A DNA stretch of 64,000 nucleotides, taken from the NCBI GenBank assembly GCA_964016885.1, contig OZ024741.1, forward strand, positions 213,342,001 to 213,406,000, in the 5' to 3' direction. A program made the position numbers and the translations under genes. A model generated the notes under the pieces. It was not told the origin of the DNA. It saw only the letters and a program-made list of their open reading frames with translations, and did not search any database. The DNA comes from Eledone cirrhosa. Taxonomy: Eukaryota. This document shows, in pieces, positions 3,771-52,565 of the stretch (the first letter of the stretch is position 1; the number at the start of each line of letters is the position of its first letter).

Positions 3771-3877
3771 TAACACTACAGTAAACATCCTGTGTTGGTA
3801 TACTCCTAGGGCGGTGAGGATGCTGTAGGGTGGAGCAATGTATTACTTAACTTAATTCACCACTATCACAGCATTTA

Positions 3878-4430
3878 CCTCGATGGTCGTGGTATTCCTG
3901 CCGGATGGAGCAATTTACCCTTCCTTCCATCCATTATTCTCAGGAAGTCTTCATCTCAAGGGAGGTAAGGTCGCAGCAGGGTGGGGCAATGAACCCTCTT
4001 TTCTCCATTCATTATTCCCACGAATTCTTCACCCCGAAGTTCACGAGGTCTCTGCATGGTGGATGAATGAACCCTTCTCCCTCCATCCCTTAATCTCAGA
4101 AAGTCTTCACCTTGAGGGTCGTGGTATTCTTGCAGGATGGAGCAATTTAGTCTTCCTTCCATTCCTTAATCGCAGAAAGACTTCATCTTGAGGGTCATGA
4201 TATTACTGCAGGATGGAACAATTTACCCTTCCTTCCATCCCTTAATCTCAGAAAGTCTTCACCTCGAGGGTCGTAAAGTCGCTGCAGGATGGAACAATGT
4301 AACGTTCGCTCCATCCATCCTTGTCTCGAAGTAACAACAGGGTAATCTACGAAGACCTGTGTGTTAACCACTGTAAATAAAATGTCGTAAGGTCGTTGCA
4401 GAGATTGAAGCAATGTACCACCATTTTCCA
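3878..4430. repeat. ~77-bp minisatellite, about 6-7 degenerate units
   Basis: gagggtcgtggtattc..gcaggatggagcaatttaccc..cttccatccc recurs near 3881, 3959, 4036, 4114, 4190 and 4266. Confidence 0.75.
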
Positions 4431-16194: not shown

Positions 16195-16306
16195 GTAGAA
16201 AAGATAAGACACCTGAGAGAGAGACAGTTCGCCATCAGTCAAACAGGGAAAAAGCACCACATTAATGACAGGGAATAGCGAGAGTCTAGGCTCCGTTAAT
16301 TTATCG

Positions 16307-16362
<56 letters not shown>

Positions 16363-16593
16363 CGTTTCTGAATTTGTTTAGCAAGATTCTTTATCTGAAA
16401 TCGTGTGTTGAAACCGATATTGTTATACTTTGGGAGGTTCATGTTGCCAATAAGAAACACACGCACCAGTTGCTTTCACTTCAATTTATTATATATTTAT
16501 AAATTTATAAATTTACAAATTTACAAATCTACAAACTTATAAATTTCTGGTTGGTTGGTTGGTTCCACAACCAGATAGTTGTTTATATATATA

Positions 16594-16636
16594 GTCATAG
16601 TCCTTTCGTCACACACTCTGTGACCTCTTCAGTGAC
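16594..16636 (-). ncRNA. Minimal type I hammerhead (family B) in the PLE1 3' terminal repeat
   Basis: guca CUGAAGA g gucac-agagugu-gugac GAAA ggac UA ugac. Confidence 0.85.
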
Positions 16637-16871
16637 AGGGGATTCCTTTCTTCGTTTCTCTGCCTTTCCTTTCTTCTATCCTACGCCATTTTGTTTCTGT
16701 GTGTGTGTTGTGTGCTCAGTTTGCGCATGCGCCACATCCGGGTGTCTGTGTGTGTTTGTGTTCATTTTTCTATTTTTCTATTTATATTTTTTTTTCTATT
16801 TGTTTATTTATTTATTTATTTATTGTTGGTTGGTTGTTTGTTCTATGTGTGTGTGTGTTTTCATTTTGTCC

Positions 16872-19546
16872 TTAATTGTAAGTTGTGATGTTGCTGTTCC
16901 ACTCATATTTTCTATTTAATTTTGGTTTTAATTCTTTTATGCTTACTGCCTCTGTAATTTGCCTAAACATTGCATCTTTTCTGTGTGTGGATTCTATTTT
17001 TATTTCTATGCTCTCTAATCTACCCCTGTGTTCTATCTTAGCATGTTGGTAGAGCATAGATGATTCTTTATTATCTTGGAGGTCTCGCCAGTGTTCATTT
17101 ATTCGTTCCCCTATACTACGAGCTGTCTCACCTATGTACACTATATTTTTGTTTCTACATTGTCCTTCAGTACATCTTATGCTATACACTACATTTCTAG
17201 TTTTACAGTTAATATGGGGGCTTATTTTACAGGTTATACATTTCTTATCTATACATGAGGGTCTTTGGAACGGGTATGTCTTGCTAATAAGTGTTTTTAC
17301 GGAGGTACCAGGTCTTTCTACTATCTTAATATTGAGATTATGTTTATTTAGGGCCCTTCTAAATTTGTAGGCTAGTTCGCCTCTAGGGGTTGTATTGATG
17401 AACATTACACTCTGGTATTTATTGCTATCATACCATGAGTTTATTCTATTGGCCTTGTTCCTAGTTCTTTCTATTCTATTCCAAAATTTGCTCCTATACA
17501 AGGGGCAGGTCCCATTTATGTCATTATTTACCATTTTTTCCCATTTGGTTCTGGCTCCTTTATACACTCTGATTCTATCTCTCTGATTGTAGCCAGAGAA
17601 CTGCATACGGTGGATGAAGTGTTGTATGTGTCTCTCTAGTTCTTCGGGGTTGCACATGCGGGACACATTTCTCATACCCGTACCAAATCCGCAATCAGTA
17701 TGTTGATTTTGGTATGGTCCGAAATGGCCGAGATCCGGTGGATCAGATGTTTGGAAGTCATGGGTTTGGCATAATGGGAATGGAGGATTTGTTTTTGGTT
17801 GTTAATGGTATCTAACCAGAGCTCTGTGTCTAGTACAGGTAATCGATGGTTGGGGTGTCTACTTGGGTAGTCTATAGTAACTCTAATGCTCTGGTGGATG
17901 GAGTTTGCTATTTGCTGGATGCTTTCCATTGTGTTTTTCTCTAGTTCCTGACTGTTCTTTAGAGGGGGTGTCTTAACTACGATGTTTATATCATCTACGT
18001 AGCGGGAGTACATTATCAGGGTTAAGCTGTCTTCTAATTGTTCATTAAGTTTTTGTTTAAATCTACTGTCCCACCATACCATGAATAAGTTAGCTATGTC
18101 GCCTGCAATGCTAACACCAATGGCTGCTCCTTTCTCTTGGGCATATGTTTTACCATTAAATTTGAACATATGTTCCTTAAGGGTTAATTTTATGCTGGCC
18201 CCTACCGCATGTGCAATCATTTTCTTCAGTTCATCGTGGTTTTCGGGTGTCCGTATGGCTCTGGTCCACCCGTTCCATCTATCTGTGTGGGTTTTCTTGG
18301 CCATTGAGGTAATGGTAGGTGGTCTGCCTCTTGCTGGTCTTGTAGGGCACAGGTTGCTAAGGTCATAAGTGTCTAGGTAACTATTACTATGGGTAAGCCT
18401 AAGTAGAAGTCCCAGCTCACAGGTATCAATCCCACGGAACTCAACCTTGCTCTCGCTGATCATTTCTACGCATTTCTCCACAGCAAAATCCACGTCAATA
18501 GATGGATACAGGGACACAACATCCATACTGCCTATTATGCAGTTTGTTAGGTCCCCAGATCGGTTACCCGCGCCGATTCTGCTGAGGAGGTCCTCCGTGC
18601 TGTCACACACATCTGGGGACATCTCAATGATGGGGCGTATGATCAGGGAGAGGAAGTAGGACAGTCTGTAGTTACTAGCAATGTTAGCCCCACAGACTGG
18701 CCGTGTTGGTGGTCCCGCGACAGGGTCCCAGCCCGTTTTATCGTCTTTTCGAAGCCCATACAACGCCGGCACGTCATTGTTCCAGGCCTAGAAGTTGTTG
18801 GCAGTCCTTTTGTTGGGCTGCATTATATTCGTCCACATCACCATATGGGCATTGAGGGCTTTTTCTCTATCCTCATGCTCCTGTGTGGGTTGCATTGCCT
18901 GGATGTAGTTTGGCAGGCTGTCAACCGACATTCTGCCAGACTTGTCTGTTGGAAAACATGCTATCTCTCCATTACGCGAGCGCTGCATGAGCTTACGCAA
19001 GCCATTTGCAGATTCTTCTCCCAGTTGCTGGGCCTCTATTCTATTATGCTTCTTGCTATACTCTTCTATAATATTTCTAAGTTCGGATTTAGCTATACTA
19101 AATTGCGCTTCTGTTTGTTCATCGACCTGAGACGGCAACTGCGTGCGTTTGTTAAATGGCAAAGTCGTGGCGTGGACTCGTCGTAGGTCGAATGATTTAT
19201 CGGAGGGGTTATAAAACGGAGAGTTCCAGGCTGCTGCTTTATGTGTACTAGTGCTATTATTATTGTTAGTTGTGTTGTTTCTATTTCCACCAACAGCCTC
19301 AGCTTCATGGTTGTTTCTATGTCTCTCATAATTACTCCTGTCTCTTTCCACTGGCTCAATGTTGTTATCTACCCTATTTTGTGTGTCTGTGTGTTCGTCT
19401 TGGTTATTCTCTTTGTCCTTAGTCTCCCATCTCCTTTTCCTTTTAATCCTATTACTTTCTCTTATTTCTCTGATTTCTGTGCTACTGTCATTACTTGTTT
19501 TCTGTGTCTGTGTGTTTGTTAAGATTGTGGTGGTGGTGAGAGGCAT
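16872..19546 (-). pseudogene. PLE1 polyprotein (RT + C-terminal GIY-YIG); in-frame TAG at 18788 and frameshift at about 17675
   Basis: TDKSG, LYGLRK, SMDVVSLYPSI, QEKGAAIG, RYVDDI, LPVLD; CxxxxCxxC linker; NVVY..YIGETAR..RINEH..EA..PKLN. Confidence 0.92.
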
Positions 19547-19962
19547 TGAATGCGTGTGTGTTGTTGTTGTTGATGTGTGTTGTTGTTGATGTGTGTTGTT
19601 GTTGTCTCCGTGTGTGTGTGTGTGTTATCGTTGTTGTGTGTGTTGTTATTGTTGTTTGTGTCTGCGTGTCTGTTGTTGTTGTATCTGGGTATGTTGCTAT
19701 TGTTGTTGTTGTTGATGTGTGTGTTGTTGTTATTGTTGTCTCCGTGTGTGTTATCGTTGTTGTGTGTGTTGTTATTGTTGTTTGTGTCTGCGTGTCTGTT
19801 GTTGTTGTATCTGGGTATGTTGCTATTGTTGTTGTTGTTGTATTGTTGTTTGTGTCTGTGTGTCTGTTGTTGTTGGGATGTGTGTTGTATATGTGTGTGC
19901 GTATATTGTTGCTTTTGTTTTTGATGCTCCAGCGTAGTTTTGAAACGAAGAAAGGAATCCCC

Positions 19963-21390: not shown

Positions 21391-22953
21391 CAGCGTTCCT
21401 TTGTCAGGGTTGAACAAATGAGCAACGATGGTTGCTAGACACTGTACGGCTTAATTCGTGATGTTTGTTTACCGAGCATTATAATAAATATTCGGTGAAT
21501 CCATACGTACATATATATATGTGTGCATGTATATATATATATATACATACTACTGTACGTCTGTATACATATATGTATGTACGTATACATACTTATATTT
21601 AAGTAACAGCCGTACTAAGAGTGAGAAATGAAATTTCGTTTCATTTTTTCCGTTTATCGTTTTCGGTACCCCGGCCGATTAACTCACTCGATATGCAAAT
21701 TAGGCTGCTCATCCGTTAATATGCATAAGGAAAGTATATACTTTCAGACGTTCAATCATCTGGCAGGAAGGTATACGTTGCTGACGATAGCTAATAATCT
21801 TGAAACTAGTACAGCGTTCCTTTGTCAGTGTTGAACAAATGAGCAACGATGGTTGCTAGACACTGTACGGCTTAATTCGGGATGTTTGTTTACAAACACA
21901 CCGAGCATTATAATAAATGTTCGGTGAATCCATACGTACATATATATATGTGTGCATGTATGTATATATATATATACATACTACTGTACGTCTGTATACA
22001 TATATGTATGTACGTATACATACTTATATTTAAGTAACAGCCATACAAAGAATGGGAAATGAAATTTCGTTTCATTTTTTTCGTTTACCGCTTTCGGTAC
22101 CCCGGCCGATTAACTCACTCGATATGCAAATTAGGCTGCTCATCCGTTAATATGCATAAGGAAAGTATCTACTTTCAGACGTTCAATCATCTGGCAGGAA
22201 GGTATACGTTGCTGACGATAGCTAATAAGCTTGAAACTAGTACAGCGTTCCTTTGTCAGTGTTGAACAAATGAGCAACGATGGTTACTAGACACTGTAGG
22301 GCTTAATTCGGGATGTTTGTTTACATACACACATAGCATTATAATAAATATTTGGTGAATCCATACGTGCATATATATATATGTGTGCATGTATGTATAT
22401 ATATATATACCTACTACTTTACGTCTGTATACATATATGTATGTACGTATACATTATTATATTTAAGTAACAGCCGTACTAAGAGTGGGAAATGAAATTT
22501 CGTTTCATTTTTTCCGTTTATCGTTTTCGGTACCCCGGCTGATTAACTCACTCGATATGCAAATTAGGCTGCTCAGCCGTTAATATGCATAAGGAAAGTA
22601 TATACTTTCAGACGTTCAGTCATCTGGCAGAAAGGTATACGTTGCTGACGATAGCTAATAAGCTTGAAACTAGTACATCGTTCCTTTGTCAGGGTTGAAC
22701 AAATGAGCAACGATGGTTGCTAGACACTGTACGGCTTAATTCGGGATGTTTGTTTACAAACACACCGAGCATTATAATAAATGTTCGGTGAATCCATACG
22801 TACATATATATATATATGTGTGCATGTATGTATATATATATACATACTACTGTACGTCTGTATACATATATGTATGTACGTATACATACGTATATTTAAG
22901 TAACAGCCGTACTAAGAGTGAGAAATGAAATTTCGTTTCATTTTTTCCGTTTA
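21391..22953 (+). repeat. Family A tandem array (3.6 units of ~431 bp), HHRs at 21775-21817, 22206-22248 and 22639-22681
   Basis: CTGACGA at 21781, 22212 and 22645 (periods 431, 433), each acgttg CUGACGA uagcu-aaua-agcuu GAAA cuag UA cagcgu or a near variant. Confidence 0.93.
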
Positions 22954-23664
22954 TATTAATATATATTCTATTAGAATTGACCTAGAGCTAATAATATAAC
23001 CTTTATACTCATTTCTGTGACGTGTTAAAATTACCAACAGTCACATAAGGAAAGACAACTATATGCTATATAACACTCTATCTATTTCCACCATCAATTA
23101 GAGACTATATTTCTGTCATTCTACATGTCAGCTGAAGGAATACCAAAATAAGTCATCTTTGTCTATATTAGCAAATTTTATTTTCTACTTCTTTTAATAT
23201 ATTCTTCATTTTATTTTTATTTATTTATTTTATTATGTATTTGTTTATTTATTTTTTCCTTTCTCAGTTATTGATCTTCGGCCGTCATATCTACCTTCCA
23301 TTCCACTCTTTCTCTCACATGTTGTTAGTCTATTAACTTCATCTCAGAAAGTATACTAGAATTTTTATTTTTGGTCGACCCCGCAGCGGTAAAGCTGACC
23401 TGTGGAAAATTTTGATTAATGTATAAAGAGCTTAGAATTAGAGTTATAGTTTTAAGTTTGCTGTTCCATGCCTGCACACGAGTTTGACGAATTTCGGATA
23501 TTATCTTGGTTCTATGGACATTAAGTGACTGGGTGTACAAATCTTCCCCCTTCCGACCTCTTGATGGTATTTAAGTTCATTACAGGGTGATTTCGTATTT
23601 TTCTAAAACTTAGTTTCGATAAACGTGTTCTCCGGTGGTATTAGATCTCATACTAAAATATACC

Positions 23665-42755: not shown

Positions 42756-43177
42756 TTTTTTTTTTTCTTTTTTTTTTTTTTCTTTCTAAATTATTATTCC
42801 ATTTTTATAAATATATCGAGATTGATACTTTCCTTTAATTATTACACTCCCTTACCTCTTTTACTTCCACATCTAAGTGTACGTGTGTGTAGGTGTGTTT
42901 ATGCGCGTGCCTTCATATTCTTATGATGTATTTATTCTGTCTGTAGTTTACAGACACACAGATACATTTGCCCTAAAATATATATTTACGCACACTTTTT
43001 CACTATACGTATATATTTTTGCATACACATATATACACATCTGTGAGCGTATGTACATACATATACACACACCTAACTTGAAAGATTTTTATATATTTCA
43101 TATTGTAATTCATTTGTCTATATATTTCTTTTTGCTTTTCTTGATGAGTCTTTCCAAGTATTTACCCATGTTTAATA

Positions 43178-43253
43178 TTGCCTCGTCTGACGAACGAATA
43201 AAGACGTTTCTTTCGTATTCGCCTCATTCGGGAAACATCTGGTAATGAGGTAA
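43178..43253 (+). ncRNA. Type I hammerhead (family D), long stem II
   Basis: uugccucgu CUGACGA a cgaau..auucg g GAAA c-aucug-g UA augagguaa; 9-bp stem I. Confidence 0.75.
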
Positions 43254-43351
43254 TTATACTATATTGATTTTTATACATTAAATTTTGCTCTGGTACTTAC
43301 ATAGAGCACTCTTCACTTCTATGACCTTTTCTGTTTTCAACGGAAATTTCA

Positions 43352-45487: not shown

Positions 45488-45965
45488 TATTGTTATACTT
45501 TGGGAGGGTCATGTTGCCAATAAGAAACACACGCACCAGTTGCTTTCACTTCAATTTATTATAAATTTATTATATAAATAAATGAACATAAACACACACA
45601 GACACCCGGATGTGGCGCATGCGCAGACTGAGCACACAACACACACACAGAAACAAAATGGCGTAGGACAGAACAAAGGAGAGGCACAGAAACAAAGAAA
45701 GGAATCCCCAGTCACTGAAGAGGTCACAGAGTGTGTGACGAAAGAACTATGGCTATATATAAACAACTATCTGGTTGTGGAACCAACCAACCAACCAGAA
45801 ATTTATAAATTTGTAAATTTATAAATTTATAAATATATAATAAATTGAAGTGAAAGCAACTGGTGCGTGTGTTTCTTATTGGCAGCATGACCCTCCAAAG
45901 TATAACAATATCGGTTTCAACACACGATTTCAGATAAAGAATCTTGCTAAACAAATTCAGAAACG

Positions 45966-45968
<3 letters not shown>
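45488..45968 (+). mobile_element. Fold-back solo PLE1 terminal repeat with a family B HHR (45710-45754)
   Basis: aguca CUGAAGA g gucac..gugac GAAA gaac UA uggcu; inserted in (TA)n. Confidence 0.88.
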
Positions 45969-46027
<59 letters not shown>

Positions 46028-46100
46028 GTATATATATATATATGTGTATATATATATATGTATATATATATATGTATATATATATGTATATATATATATG

Positions 46101-46199
46101 TATGGTGTCCCCAAAAAATGTATACACACTTAACTGCATTCTAATAAATATTGACTGTACAATCAAAGTGTGTATACATTTTTTGGCTCACCCTCTATA
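46101..46199. mobile_element. ~100-bp Tc1/mariner-like MITE (inverted copy at 49383-49483)
   Basis: TIRs ggtg..ccaaaaaatgtatacacac at both ends, TA flanks. Confidence 0.65.
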
Positions 46200-46212
46200 T
46201 ACAAGCGCAGGC

Positions 46213-46295
<83 letters not shown>

Positions 46296-47082: not shown

Positions 47083-47106
47083 CTTGAATAATATATATAT
47101 ATATAG

Positions 47107-49355
47107 TAAAAAGTATGACCCCGACGGCAGAGCTCCAGCCGTTTCGACGGCTATTTCTGGACTAAATTAGAATTTTTAGCCTGGTGAATAAATCGCTGAA
47201 CTTTTCAAGGGGGTACTTCCTTATATGGGAAGATTGTAGTTGTGAAGAGGATTGGTTAAAATTTGTTGTAAACACAAATAAGTCTATCATGGCATTTGGT
47301 GGGAGGTAGGGGTGGCTGAACTTGCCTGTAGAACAATAGGGGTGTGAGTGGTGCGGTCAAGCGTTGAAAGTGATATGTATACAGCAGATTCTAAGTGTAT
47401 GAAGTGGGAGAGGGAGGTTATAGAATAGGTAAATCGAATGAGAGTAGGAGACAATAAAAGATAATAGAAATAAATAAAAATATATATAAAATTAGATAGT
47501 GAGAAATGAATAAAAATAAATCACAATGCTATCTTACAATTACAGGTTAATAAGTTGAGAATAGAAAACACTTGTAGTAAAAACTTGTAGTACCAGAACT
47601 GATAGAGAATTAAAGGGGTTTAACACGTCTGCTATAAGTAGTTAGTAAAACGTATTATGCCTATTCTATCTTTAAATTAAAGGGGTGGGGGAACTGATGC
47701 TACAGAAGCCCAATGGGCTGCATCAGGGTAGGCGAAGAGGAAAAGCAGTGGAGGAAGAAAATAGGGGGTGGAAGGAAGTGATAGGATGAGATAGGGGGAG
47801 GAAGAAGACAAAGAGGAAAAGAAAAGGAAAGAGATACATCTACCTAAGTAAGCTGAGGTTTCCCATAACTTATTCCGCAAGTAGGGAGTCTCAGCCTTTG
47901 TCTACCCACCCGGGTCGTTATGGGGTTTGAGGGCGAGGTAAGTCCTACGCAATCTGTGTTTGCATGCGGTTACCAGTTCCTCTTTCTTGTTTAGGAGTTG
48001 GTCCTTCGAAAACAGCATTTGTAATGTTTCCTCCGAGCATAAGTTACACGGACGGCGTCCTCCCGTGTAAGAGTTAGCTTAGGACAGTAAGCTCCAAGTG
48101 AGATTGTAAGTTATATTATTATCTTGGAGGTCCCAGATGTGGCCCGAAAGTGTAGTGGCATATCGCCGGGCCGGCTTTCGGAAAGTATGTCGGTGTTGGT
48201 AGAGCCGGGTCTTGAAGTCACACGCGGTTAATCCTATATAAGCTTTGTTGGAGGTATCCGTCCTCACGTTGCACTGGTAGATGACGTTACGTTCTCGGCA
48301 TTTGTTGTTGAGGGGGCACGTAGATCTATCAGGGCAGTTAGACCTCCTGGTCGGCTCTCCACTGATGTCTAGGTTATTTCTTCCATAGAGGTTGAGTTTT
48401 TTGATGTTTGAGGAGACGACGTTTTGTGCGAAGTTAGGTGTGGCTCTGTAGGAGAGTTTGATGGTGTTTTTGTTGATTATGTTGTGGTAGCGGTGTTGTA
48501 GTGGGAAGTGTTTTTCGAGGAGTCTAAAGAAGATTTTTCCCGATAGGTGTTGCCATCCCGGCATTATGGGGAGGATTGAACCACGTTACGTTGCGTGAGC
48601 GGCGGTGTCGCCTGCTGGTTACGCTAAGGGAAGCTGGATACAAGGATATTTCCTCCCGGAAGCCACTCCGATTGAGGGCCTGGTTGTAATGTGGCGCGTG
48701 TTCGTCGAATATCTGCTCATTAGCGGACAAACGAGATATGCGGAGGGAGATGTTTTTAACCAGGTTATTGGTGATGTTTCTAGGATGGTTAGAGCGGCGG
48801 TGGATGGAGTGAAGGTTGTCGTTTGGTTTCCTGTATGGGTAGTACAGATCATTTTCGAGGTTACGGGTAACGTCCAGGAAATTTACTCGGGTTAGGGACG
48901 TTTGTAGGGTGATTTTATATCCCCAGTCCCGGAAGAAGTTGATTAGTTGTTTACGGACCCGGTCTGTACTACTGAGGTTGTACCCTTTGAGGGTGGGGAG
49001 CAGATCATCCCAGTACAATCCACCGCCGAATGCAGGAAATATTTCGGTGAGTTTAAATAGTAGGAATAATCCTATAAGATCAGTGACCTCGGCCGAATCC
49101 GTCGCGCCCATACTGACGTCGAAGGGGGAGTCGGGAGCTCTCTTTATCCACTTAGAGTTGTCGAAAAGTAGGACTGTCTTCCTGGCGTGGAGAATGACAT
49201 TTCTTTCCTGCTCAGTGATGGGTGTGAGTGTTTCGGCAAATTCCAAGGCGGCCGTCGGGGTCATACTTTTTCCCATTTCCCACTCTACTGCCCTAAGTAT
49301 TGAGTACTCTGGTGCGTTATGGTCCATCTGGTTCCTTACCACAATTCCTTTGTTA
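47107..49355 (-). mobile_element. 5'-truncated Penelope-like element PLE2 with an inverted terminal repeat at its 5' end
   Basis: FDVSMGATDSAEV, GLYWDDL, VNFLDV, SNHP, WFNPP, NVIY..YIG..R..H, CNLC, CKHR; gccgtcggggtcatactttt at 49250 is inverted at 47110-47130. Confidence 0.92.
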
Positions 49356-49482
49356 TATATATATATTCGCCTGCGCTTGTATATAGAGGGTGAACCAAAA
49401 AATGTATACACACATTGATTACTTGTACAGGCTATATTTATTAGAATGCAGTTGAAGTGTGTATACATTTTTGGGGGACACC

Positions 49483-49565
<83 letters not shown>

Positions 49566-49572
<7 letters not shown>

Positions 49573-50792
49573 AATTTATATCTAGTAACATTTATATACA
49601 CAGATGCATATCAATGCTAGCAAATATATAGGTTTTATCTTATTAACATTGTGGTTCAATGCATGGGGTTGCAGAACAATAATATGAGAGACGTAAAATA
49701 AGAAAATTATAAATTTAACTTACTTACTAAAAAATCACTTCCAACTAATTAGTTTCTTGTATGGAGTAAATATATTTTCCGAAGAAACATATAGAAAATC
49801 ATTCCGTCATCAGGAAAGTCTTTTTCCGTGTAAGTCTCCAGGCATAGCGAGGACTCTGGAAACTTATTAAAAAGATAATTCAGTGGAAAGGAAATAGCGA
49901 AGCGAGGACTGGATTCCTAGCCATTGAGAAAGTCACTGCCTCTTCGTCTGTGGCAAATTCAAAAAGAATCAATCACGTGACATCGAGGTCAATCAGTGGA
50001 AAGCGAATGGTTAATAAGACAGCGGCCAGCCTACTACCATAGTAGCAGTCATGGCCAAATATTGCTCGACAAATGAATTGGAGATAATTATAAGGAATTT
50101 ATATCTAGTAACATTTATATACACACAGATGCATATCAATGCTAGCAAATATATAGGTTTTGTCTTATTAACATTGTGGTTCAATGCATGGGGTTGCAGA
50201 ACAATAATATGAGAGACGTAAAATAAGAAAATTATAAAATTAACTTACTTACTAAAAAATCACTTCCAACTAATTAGTTTCTGGAATGGAGTAAATATAT
50301 TTTCCGAAGAAACATATGGAAAATCATTCCGTCATCAGGAAAGTCTTTTTACGTGTAAGTCTCCAGGCATAGCGAGGACTCTGGAAACTTATTAAAAAAA
50401 TAATTCAGTGGAAAGGAAATAGCGAAGCGAGGACTGGATTCCTAGCCATTGAGAAAGTCCGCTGTCTTATTAACCATTCGCTTTCCACTGATTGACCTCG
50501 ATGTCACGTGATTGATTCTTTTTGAATTTGCCACAGACGAAGAGGCAGTGACTTTCTCAATGGCTAGGAATCCAGTCCTCGCTTCGCTATTTCCTTTCCA
50601 CTGAATTATTTTTTTAATAAGTTTCCAGAGTCCTCGCTATGCCTGGAGACTTACGCGGAAAAAGACTTTCCTGATAACGGAATGATTTTCTGTATGTTTC
50701 CTCCGAAAATATATTTACTCCATTCCAGAAACTAATTAGTTGGAAGTGATTTTTTAGTAAGTAAGTTAAATTTATAATTTTCTTATTTTACG

Positions 50793-50800
<8 letters not shown>
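49566..50800. repeat. Family C 525-bp HHR repeat: 1.7 direct units (-) plus an inverted partial unit
   Basis: 49566-49935 matches 50089-50459; 50460-50800 is the reverse complement of 49683-50023; HHRs at 49737-49819 (-), 50262-50344 (-) and 50665-50747 (+, CUGAUAA). Confidence 0.88.
50262..50344 (-). ncRNA. Type I hammerhead (family C), intact
   Basis: acuuuc CUGAUGA c ggaaug..cauucc a GAAA cuaauuag UU ggaagu. Confidence 0.82.
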
Positions 50801-50872
<72 letters not shown>

Positions 50873-50875
<3 letters not shown>

Positions 50876-50989
50876 TTGAAAAAAATGAAAACGAAATTTC
50901 ATTTCTCACTCTTAGTATGGCACTTACTTAAACGTAAGTATGTATGTATACGTACATATACATATGTATACAGACGTACAGTAGCACGC

Positions 50990-51066
<77 letters not shown>

Positions 51067-51933
51067 TACACATATGCATACAGGTACACATACATATATG
51101 CACGCATCAGTTTAGCCAACGTTTATTATAACGCCGGCCGCTTTGTTCGTTTGTTTGTCAACAAAGCGAACAGCCTGAATTTATGCCATACGGTGTTAAG
51201 GCAACCACGTCACCTTTTTGTTCAACACTGACACAGGAACGATGTACTAGTTTCAAGCTTGTTAGCTATCATCAGCACCGTTTACCCATTTGCATATTGA
51301 GTGAGTTAAATCGGTCAGGCATACCGAAAACGATAAGTTGAAAAAAATGAAAACGAAATTTCATTTCTCACTCTTAGTATGACACTTACTTAAACGTAAG
51401 TATGTATGTATACGTACATACACATATGTATACAGACGTACAGTAGCACGCATATATATATACATATATATATACATATATACACATATGCATACAGGTA
51501 CACATACATATATGCACGCATCAGTTTAGCCGACGTTTATTATAACGCCGGCCGCTTTGTTCGTTTGTTTGTCAACAAAGCGAACATCCTGAATTTATGC
51601 CATACGGTGTTAAGGCAACCACGTCACCTTTTTGTTCAACACTGACACAGGAACGATGTACTAGTTTCAAGCTTGTTAGCTATCATCATCACCGTTTACC
51701 CATCTGCCAGATAGTTGAACGTTCGAAAGTATATACTTTCCTTATGAAAATTAACGGCTGAGCAGCCTAATTTGCATATTGAGTGAGTTAAATCGGTCAG
51801 GCATACCGAAAACGATAAGTTGAAAAAAATGAAAACGAAATTTCATTTCTCACTCTTAGTATGGCACTTACTTAAACGTAAGTATGTATGTATACGTACA
51901 TACACATATGTATACAGACGTACAGTAGCACGC

Positions 51934-51968
<35 letters not shown>

Positions 51969-52392
51969 CATATATACACATATGCATACAGGTACACATA
52001 CATATATGCACGTATCAGTTTAGCCGACGTTTTTTTTCAACTCATCGTTTTCGGTATGCCTGACCGATTTAACTCACTCAATATGCAAATTAGGCTGCTC
52101 AGCCGTTAATTTTCATATGGAAAGTATATACTTACGAACGTTCAACTATCTGGCAGATGGGTAAACGGTGCTGATGATAGCTAACAAGCTTGAAACTAGT
52201 ACATCGTTCCTGTGTCAGTGTTGAACAAAAAGGTGACGTGGTTGCCTTAACACCGTATGGCATAAATTCAGGCTGTTCGCTTTGTTGACAAACAAACGAA
52301 CAAAGCGGCCGGCGTTATAATAAACGTCGGCTAAACTGATGCGTGCATATATGTATGTGTACCTGTATGCATATGTGTATATATGTATATAT

Positions 52393-52424
<32 letters not shown>

Positions 52425-52488
52425 GTATATATATATGCGTGCTACTGTACGTCTGTATACATATGTGTATGTACGTATACATACATAC
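50873..52488. repeat. Family A array: about 2.5 units (-) then 1 inverted unit (+); HHRs at 51239-51281, 51653-51695 (AUGAUGA) and 52165-52207
   Basis: Homology to the other arrays; strand switch at about 52030. Confidence 0.92.
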
Positions 52489-52489
52489 C

Positions 52490-52565
<76 letters not shown>

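Follow-up and report, generated by a model that had tools for sequence, protein, structure and literature searches.

Which mobile element leaves hammerhead ribozymes in tandem, together with an inverted partial copy, in the middle of a (TA)n run? The question is posed by a locus in the window, i.e. the whole 64,000-nt stretch of Eledone cirrhosa DNA that we analysed (contig OZ024741.1). The initial annotation had inferred a second retrozyme-like family, separate from the other hammerhead repeat of the window, and had named the solo terminal repeat of an autonomous PLE as the alternative.

Anatomy of the locus

The element occupies positions 49566–50802 as a single insertion (Table 1). It had been described as lying in (TA)n, and TA runs indeed adjoin it on both sides; as both element ends are inside these runs, any target-site duplication is masked. 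We chose one full 525-nt unit as the reference and number it along the minus strand, unit position 1 being window position 50264, which puts the predicted cut of the 50262–50344 hammerhead after unit position 522. As previously noticed, two minus-strand hammerheads lie exactly 525 nt apart, with 36 nt within a 6-bp stem II and with the palindrome CUAAUUAG as stem III. The weakened stem II of the 49737 copy is borne out by a core-constrained fold of −5.7 kcal/mol as compared to −11.1 kcal/mol, with two substitutions in the 3′ strand, and this copy scored below the stem II filter of our motif scan. The CUGAUAA core of the inverted partial unit, also seen earlier, is found in 2 of the 126 distinct copies. 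Only the 50262–50344 ribozyme is thus intact, i.e. one of the three at the locus and one of the two in the tandem pair.

The inverted unit is the second arm of one insertion and not an incidental neighbour: it is joined 5′-to-5′ with the long arm, with an overlap of 1 nt. The repeat is without an ORF, as annotated, the longest stop-free frame in the doubled 525-nt unit being 77 codons. The E-box-like CACGTG block might conceivably act as a promoter.

Table 1. Features of the element and of its flanks (positions in the window).
Feature	Positions	Strand	Remarks
(TA)n target run, left side	49483–49569		flanks element
(TA)n target run, right side	50799–50873		flanks element
Long arm, 896 nt = 1.7 units	49566–50459	−	unit position 331 to site B (position 176)
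Full 525-nt unit, reference	49740–50264	−	family consensus 35% G+C, no ORF
Intact type I hammerhead	50262–50344	−	predicted cut between 50268 and 50267
Second hammerhead	49737–49819	−	stem II damaged, two substitutions
'Tail', site A (about 58) to site B (about 176)	49566–49681	−	one insertion end only
Inverted arm, 344 nt	50459–50802	+	unit position 240 to site A; 97–98% alike
Third hammerhead	50665–50747	+	core CUGAUAA (G8A), predicted inactive
E-box-like palindrome (CACGTG) block	49967–49981	−	almost unvarying across subfamilies
Second E-box-like (CACGTG) block copy	50503–50517	+	

A dispersed superfamily of hammerhead repeats

A DNA search of the genome returned 2406 first-look candidates, 40 of which were scored and found to be 96–100% identical. 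Exact matches in the genome number 473 for a 26-mer from the ribozyme of the window subfamily, 2338 for a 23-mer of a sister subfamily (530 nt, 79% alike), 5688 for a common 23-mer near site A and 12,089 for a ribozyme 19-mer containing stem III; the places among those listed lie on the first chromosomes only. As the reversed control patterns for all four motifs gave 0 matches, these counts are not due to chance. A further, young sister subfamily has a unit of 558 nt and is 69% alike, and the superfamily as a whole consists of dispersed units of 520–558 nt that are 69–100% alike. For the comparisons below, loci were taken in rounds: 30 on the strength of their match, then 70 that carry the ribozyme motif, and later sets drawn with other motifs.

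The repeats have the traits of hammerhead retrozymes: a type I motif in each tandem unit, dispersed tandems, no ORF and a G+C content below 50%, with consecutive tandem ribozymes found in dispersed loci. The claim that the monomer is longer than typical metazoan ones depends on the yardstick: it holds against the 150–450 bp reported for metazoan retrozyme units by Cervera and de la Pena 2020 (PMC7229834) and fails against the 51–972 bp of Li, Clavereau and Pollet 2026 (bioRxiv 10.64898/2026.07.22.740005). Rfam gave no hammerhead match on 49570–50800, and the 150 of 284 matches listed from a scan of the whole window are all below gathering scores and mostly to microRNA models. The flanks of loci L002–L124 contain at least six more hammerhead families, the genome being very rich in hammerheads, and the window also holds a diverged 76-nt tandem repeat of 5.7 copies at 3877–4320.

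Independence from family A, which we took to be the 433-nt hammerhead repeat (21391–22954 and 50875–52500), stands at the level of sequence, the best match being a 19-nt low-complexity word (E 0.047), but not at the level of insertions, as one locus (L223, see below) joins both families head to head. The 50875–52500 copy is itself a two-armed insertion that abuts our element across the TA run, with ends about 60 nt apart by eye.

An unusual hammerhead with covarying helices

The 50262–50344 ribozyme is made up of a 6-bp stem I, CUGAUGA, a C·A mismatch, a 6-bp stem II, GAAA, the palindromic stem III and GUU, and hence has three helices and an NUH site; the GUU cleavage triplet is conserved, although it was fixed by the search pattern, which left C·A free. 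Among 177 distinct copies selected with a relaxed core pattern, 170 have the CUGANGA core, and stem II pairs 1–4 and 6 are kept in 172–175 and pair 5 in 152. Compensatory changes are found at pairs 2 and 5, pair 2 being G-C in 92 copies, A-U in 78, C-G in 3 and U-A in 1, counts that represent only a few independent events. Pairs 1–4 of stem I are kept in 121–124 of 126 copies, and pairing survives several changes. The closing position of stem II is C·A in 167 of the 177 copies, A·A in 6 and U·A in 4, in place of the canonical G10.1-C11.1 pair, and one step beyond it lies a G-C pair in 174. Both the C·A mismatch and the GUU site may lower hammerhead activity.

Beyond its six pairs stem II continues into an internal loop of about 7 by 7 nt and a distal hairpin that is often UUCG-capped. 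The inner segments fold as a hairpin in 127 of 128 cases, and in the 558-nt subfamily the sequence of the distal hairpin is wholly changed while its fold is kept. The conserved internal loop may supply the loop 1-loop 2 tertiary contact. Left unconstrained, the intact ribozyme takes a minimum-energy fold (−14.2) other than the hammerhead (−11.1), and folding the consensus as a circle (z −4.4, 40 shuffles) yields stem II without stem I. The palindromic stem III suggests, by analogy with PLE and amphibian hammerheads, that cleavage would be dimeric; related ribozymes in print often show weak activity, with 8 of 9 Xenopus retrozyme dimers failing to cleave. The family provides a natural hammerhead variant that has been kept, with covarying helices, in about 12,000 copies.

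Two fixed 3′ ends, one on each arm

Copies are mostly dispersed two-armed insertions of 0.1–3 laps, with a mean arm length of about 410 nt, which is under one unit. While the 5′ ends of arms are scattered, their 3′ ends are fixed: among 147 arms from 88 insertions of the window subfamily, 70 end at site A (unit position about 58), 69 at site B (about 176, i.e. 118 nt away) and 8 elsewhere. These ends run into TA in 66 of 70 cases for site A and 67 of 69 for site B. Where head-to-head arms have both ends fixed, an A end is paired with a B end in 46 of 48 insertions (p 4e-12 against random pairing). The figure is 22 of 23 among loci retrieved with a site-A motif and 18 of 18 in the 558-nt subfamily, from which two pairs were omitted as one of their ends was off-site; over the three sets this makes 86 of 89. 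The window copy obeys the rule, with its long arm ending at site B and its inverted arm at site A. Loose ends in TA at 50089 and 50207, which are the two sites, are also seen in contigs from public data (three runs of a single sample, from which the assembly may derive). The 5′-to-5′ joints of opposed arms overlap by 1–9 nt in 39 of 54 cases, to which BLAST ends may add a base or two; 5 joints are blunt and 10 have 1–41 extra bases.

One template haplotype for both arms and all laps

Each insertion, with its two arms and every lap in them, derives from a single template haplotype. At 14 polymorphic sites, insertions differ from one another by 45%, laps by 4.4% and opposite arms by 4.2%. Laps have rare variants in common in 56 of 295 cases (19%) and arms in 38 of 316 (12%), as compared to 320 of 79,772 (0.4%) for different insertions, and a set of mixed subfamilies gives distances of 10.9% between insertions, 2.8% between laps and 3.4% between opposite arms. 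Copying reads through the ribozyme: in a set not selected by ribozyme, 6 of 73 arms have a stop close to the first cut site, where the background rate is 4.4%. A pile-up of six 5′ ends at the cut site had looked suggestive in the first set, but the 6 of 73 in the unselected set compare with about 3 expected, and we discarded the idea. The two arms often cover the same unit positions, which means that copying must pass the other priming site; as arms pass both the ribozyme site and the other priming site, the template was either circular or uncleaved.

The best material for the question of a circle is the young 558-nt subfamily (L317–L322), with arms of up to 12.3 laps. Its insertions reach 12.3, 7.1 and 5.3 + 3.5 laps, and in L318 (3.5 + 5.3 laps) three rare variants are present in every lap of both arms. 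In five insertions of this set, 7 rare variants are found in all covering segments of both arms; 7 variants of the young set are confined to a subset of one arm and 1 to a subset of both arms. In the older window subfamily, 8 private variants from 6 insertions are found in both arms yet are absent from one lap, alongside 9 that are present in all segments. For the former, the chance expectation is 0.38 and none of 200 permutations reaches 8; the window locus supplies one case, at unit position 26. The mixed set contains 7 such variants after we dropped L261, the third arm of which is a separate insertion. Given these variants, a pure monomer circle is insufficient unless gene conversion came later, and their lower number in the youngest set (1 vs 7) leans towards such conversion.

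Subset patterns in long arms, together with the nested shared variants of locus L191, show that arrays change after insertion, so that lap number alone proves nothing. L191 (427–8831) is a two-armed insertion of 15.7 units of 521 nt with most ribozymes intact; its nested variants rule out a single 16-lap event, and it has grown by later unequal exchange and is a possible source locus. RNA editing proved a weak lead: while A>G changes account for 13 of the 57 shared variants and for 26 of the 279 that are unshared (Fisher p 0.011), the asymmetry between strands reaches p 0.07 and 4 of the 13 shared changes are one site. The young copies favour a circular template, and we give a monomer circle slightly better than even odds of being the main one.

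Relationship to PLEs

The insertions have several traits of PLEs, namely a partial tandem, an inverted 5′-truncated copy, a one-sided tail and a microsatellite target. Arms longer than one unit, however, continue into another unit and never into an ORF. Among free 5′ ends (60 + 27), 30 + 16 abut TA and the others have no shared flank leading to an ORF, and when 151 + 65 loci were searched by tblastn with four PLE frames from the window, a single direct joint came up, at a 3′ end (L223). As a continuation into a PLE ORF is absent from about 200 sampled insertions, the unit is not a solo terminal repeat, and the annotation as a second, ORF-less retrozyme-like family gains support.

Two loci combine our repeat with other families. 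In L223 (1954–2910) the site-B end enters, via a 5-nt microhomology, the RT frame of the PLE family of 16300–19600, and the 5′ end of the arm is joined to an inverted family-A arm, so that three families stand in one stretch. Its outer ends are the upstream site of the PLE and the downstream site of family A, the latter judged by eye, as a pattern for the family-A downstream end matched nothing. L033 (1270–1700) combines a site-B arm head to head with the inverted hammerhead end of a different PLE, at the upstream site of the latter. One of the two chimeras follows the same site rule. Together they suggest shared machinery, although they could be deletions between neighbouring insertions. A third apparent chimera, L086, proved to have inserted where a small PLE remnant ends. 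Beyond a TA spacer, the 5′ flanks common to L031 and L078 and to L147 and L148 consist of a different repeat or of duplicated DNA.

The neighbouring PLE (47100–49350, minus strand) is a 5′-truncated element of Hydra type with a short inverted arm of its own (about 49251–49350) and two 3′ ends. As a parent of the repeat it was rejected: in 25 loci it has only AT-rich word similarity, and another element and a TA run separate the two. The separating element (49363–49482) is short and MITE-like, with inverted ends, and is seemingly also present near 45850–46290. While hammerheads have been reported throughout the Hydra clade (Craig et al., PMC8557442), a hammerhead scan of 25 loci of the neighbour's family found no associated motif. 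A protein search for a partner returned only this family (48,867 first-look candidates), Pfam did not recognise the Hydra-type ORF, and no autonomous partner with shared sequence was found in the loci compared. As judged by their motifs, candidate helpers are Hydra-type PLEs, such as the neighbour's family with its CxCX5C linker and DKT and RWR motifs, and a family with a CX4CX2C linker that would be of 'Neptune/Nematis-type' by Craig's description alone.

Two other PLEs of the window also have two ends each. That at 16300–19600 (minus strand) combines a CX4CX2C linker with a C-terminal GIY-YIG; about 60 nt separate its two 3′ ends, both of which run into TA (9 and 10 cases). The other, for which L130 shows a Hydra-like endonuclease further upstream, carries a hammerhead at its 3′ end (43177–43254, plus strand). 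The stem II of this hammerhead resembles ours in its 6-bp core, closing mismatch and long insert, and the distance between the two ends is about 75 nt.

Discussion

Our reading, to which we assign a probability of roughly 0.7, is that the locus is an insertion of an ORF-less hammerhead repeat, likely a non-LTR retrozyme, in which two arms were copied from one RNA, probably a circle, by a borrowed PLE RT that primed on both sides of a (TA)n break. We are highly confident in PLE-driven twin priming, because the layout of the arms matches the habits of PLEs: the purified anole PLE protein, a predicted dimer, acts on both target strands by nicking and extension and initiates at two internal RNA sites downstream of the hammerhead (Frangieh et al. 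2024, PMC11167929), and a layout of tandem, inverted copy, tail and (TA)n is characteristic of these elements (Craig et al. 2021, PMC8557442). Tandem copies would be transcribed and would self-cleave, probably as dimers via the palindromic stem III, and the products would be ligated into monomer circles. A dimeric PLE protein would nick both (TA)n strands and start copying from one of them at site A and from its opposite at site B. The two enzymes would then travel along the template, displacing cDNA, and stop at random, after which the two cDNA ends would be joined. Circular templates have been proposed before for PLE copying beyond one unit (Cervera and de la Pena 2014, PMC4209133). A bolder version, for which we would offer somewhat less than even odds, has an asymmetric two-site integration in which the PLE dimer always uses A with B, makes up to a dozen laps round a single circle and occasionally loads RNAs of two unrelated families with the A+B rule kept, the ribozyme being a working hammerhead variant with a long, two-part stem II.

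Twin priming would also operate, with a different template, if the PLE copied an uncleaved multi-unit read-through transcript, the ribozyme being a passenger or acting elsewhere and array growth renewing the multimers. We regard this as possible but distinctly the weaker account. It would explain the variants shared by both arms and missing from a lap (8 in the window subfamily, 7 in the mixed set), several of which, in L072, L186 and L260, fit one unit register per insertion; the anole PLE mainly uses unprocessed RNA, its own ribozyme being dispensable in vitro (PMC11167929), and the 15.7-unit array with mostly intact ribozymes exists. On the other hand, the scarcity of such variants in the youngest set is what later conversion predicts, linear copying alone would shorten copies in each generation, given that the mean arm is shorter than a unit, and the structure of the ribozyme covaries across subfamilies.

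That the unit is the pseudo-LTR of an autonomous PLE, with the copies as truncated solo forms, is improbable: while all features of the insertions are PLE-like and the true PLE 3′ end at 43177–43254 resembles ours in its long stem II, arms extending beyond one unit enter another unit and never an ORF, 46 of 87 free 5′ ends abut TA and the remainder lack a common flank leading to an ORF, and the single direct PLE joint in 151 + 65 loci is at a 3′ end, in a sample of about 200 of thousands of insertions. We give least credence of all to a DNA-level minisatellite or fold-back repeat spread by recombination, or to an assembly artefact of TA runs. L191 grew by unequal exchange, and the region is dense in TA runs and inverted repeats, but recombination would not be expected to leave the 3′ ends fixed and the 5′ ends random, nor to pair A strictly with B, and the loose ends at 50089 and 50207 in contigs from the public runs, with the reservation about their source made above, also count against this account.

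Mobilisation of retrozymes by PLEs has been proposed from co-occurrence and pLTR similarity (PMC7229834; bioRxiv 10.64898/2026.07.22.740005), and its route via circular RNA is, in the cited papers, proposed rather than demonstrated. The family described here defines the priming sites exactly, with an obligate rule for their pairing, and adds candidate driver proteins and young insertions of several laps, with which the helper and the circle step become directly testable. It also accounts for the PLE 'tail', which becomes the interval separating two priming sites that are used at opposite ends. In a literature search, neither paired fixed ends in retrozymes nor a cephalopod retrozyme came up, although supplements may list related families; one squid genome paper gives 235 Rfam hammerheads.

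The repeat behaves as a PLE terminal repeat freed from its ORF and has the testable features of a non-LTR retrozyme; to what is known it adds an unusual covarying ribozyme, cross-family chimeras and evidence that complicates a simple circle reading. Like metazoan non-LTR retrozymes it forms tandem non-coding units with low G+C, one type I hammerhead each and a short palindromic stem III, in thousands of copies with PLEs alongside, and its basal mismatch of helix II has a precedent among retrozymes in axolotl HHR_Amex2 (U·U). It departs from them in its 520–558-nt unit, extended stem II domain, GUU site and dispersed two-armed insertions, and in its fixed paired ends, the last of which the accounts of metazoan retrozymes drawn on here (PMC7229834; bioRxiv 10.64898/2026.07.22.740005) do not describe. 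With PLE insertions and anole Poseidon PAc it shares partial tandems, an inverted 5′-truncated copy and AT-rich or (TA)n targets, and, as in Poseidon PAc, two initiation sites downstream of the hammerhead define a one-sided tail. Unlike PLEs and PAc, it has no ORF, and its tail is 118 nt long as compared to their 30–40; moreover, it uses its two sites as an obligate pair, one at either end, whereas the start site of PAc did not differ between strands in vitro. Finally, its ribozyme resembles the minimal hammerheads of PLEs (PMC4209133) in a helix II of more than 4 bp, an unpaired base after CUGANGA and a palindromic helix III for dimeric cleavage, and differs from them in an extra A also before GAAA, a helix III of 2–3 bp and a second hairpin on helix II.
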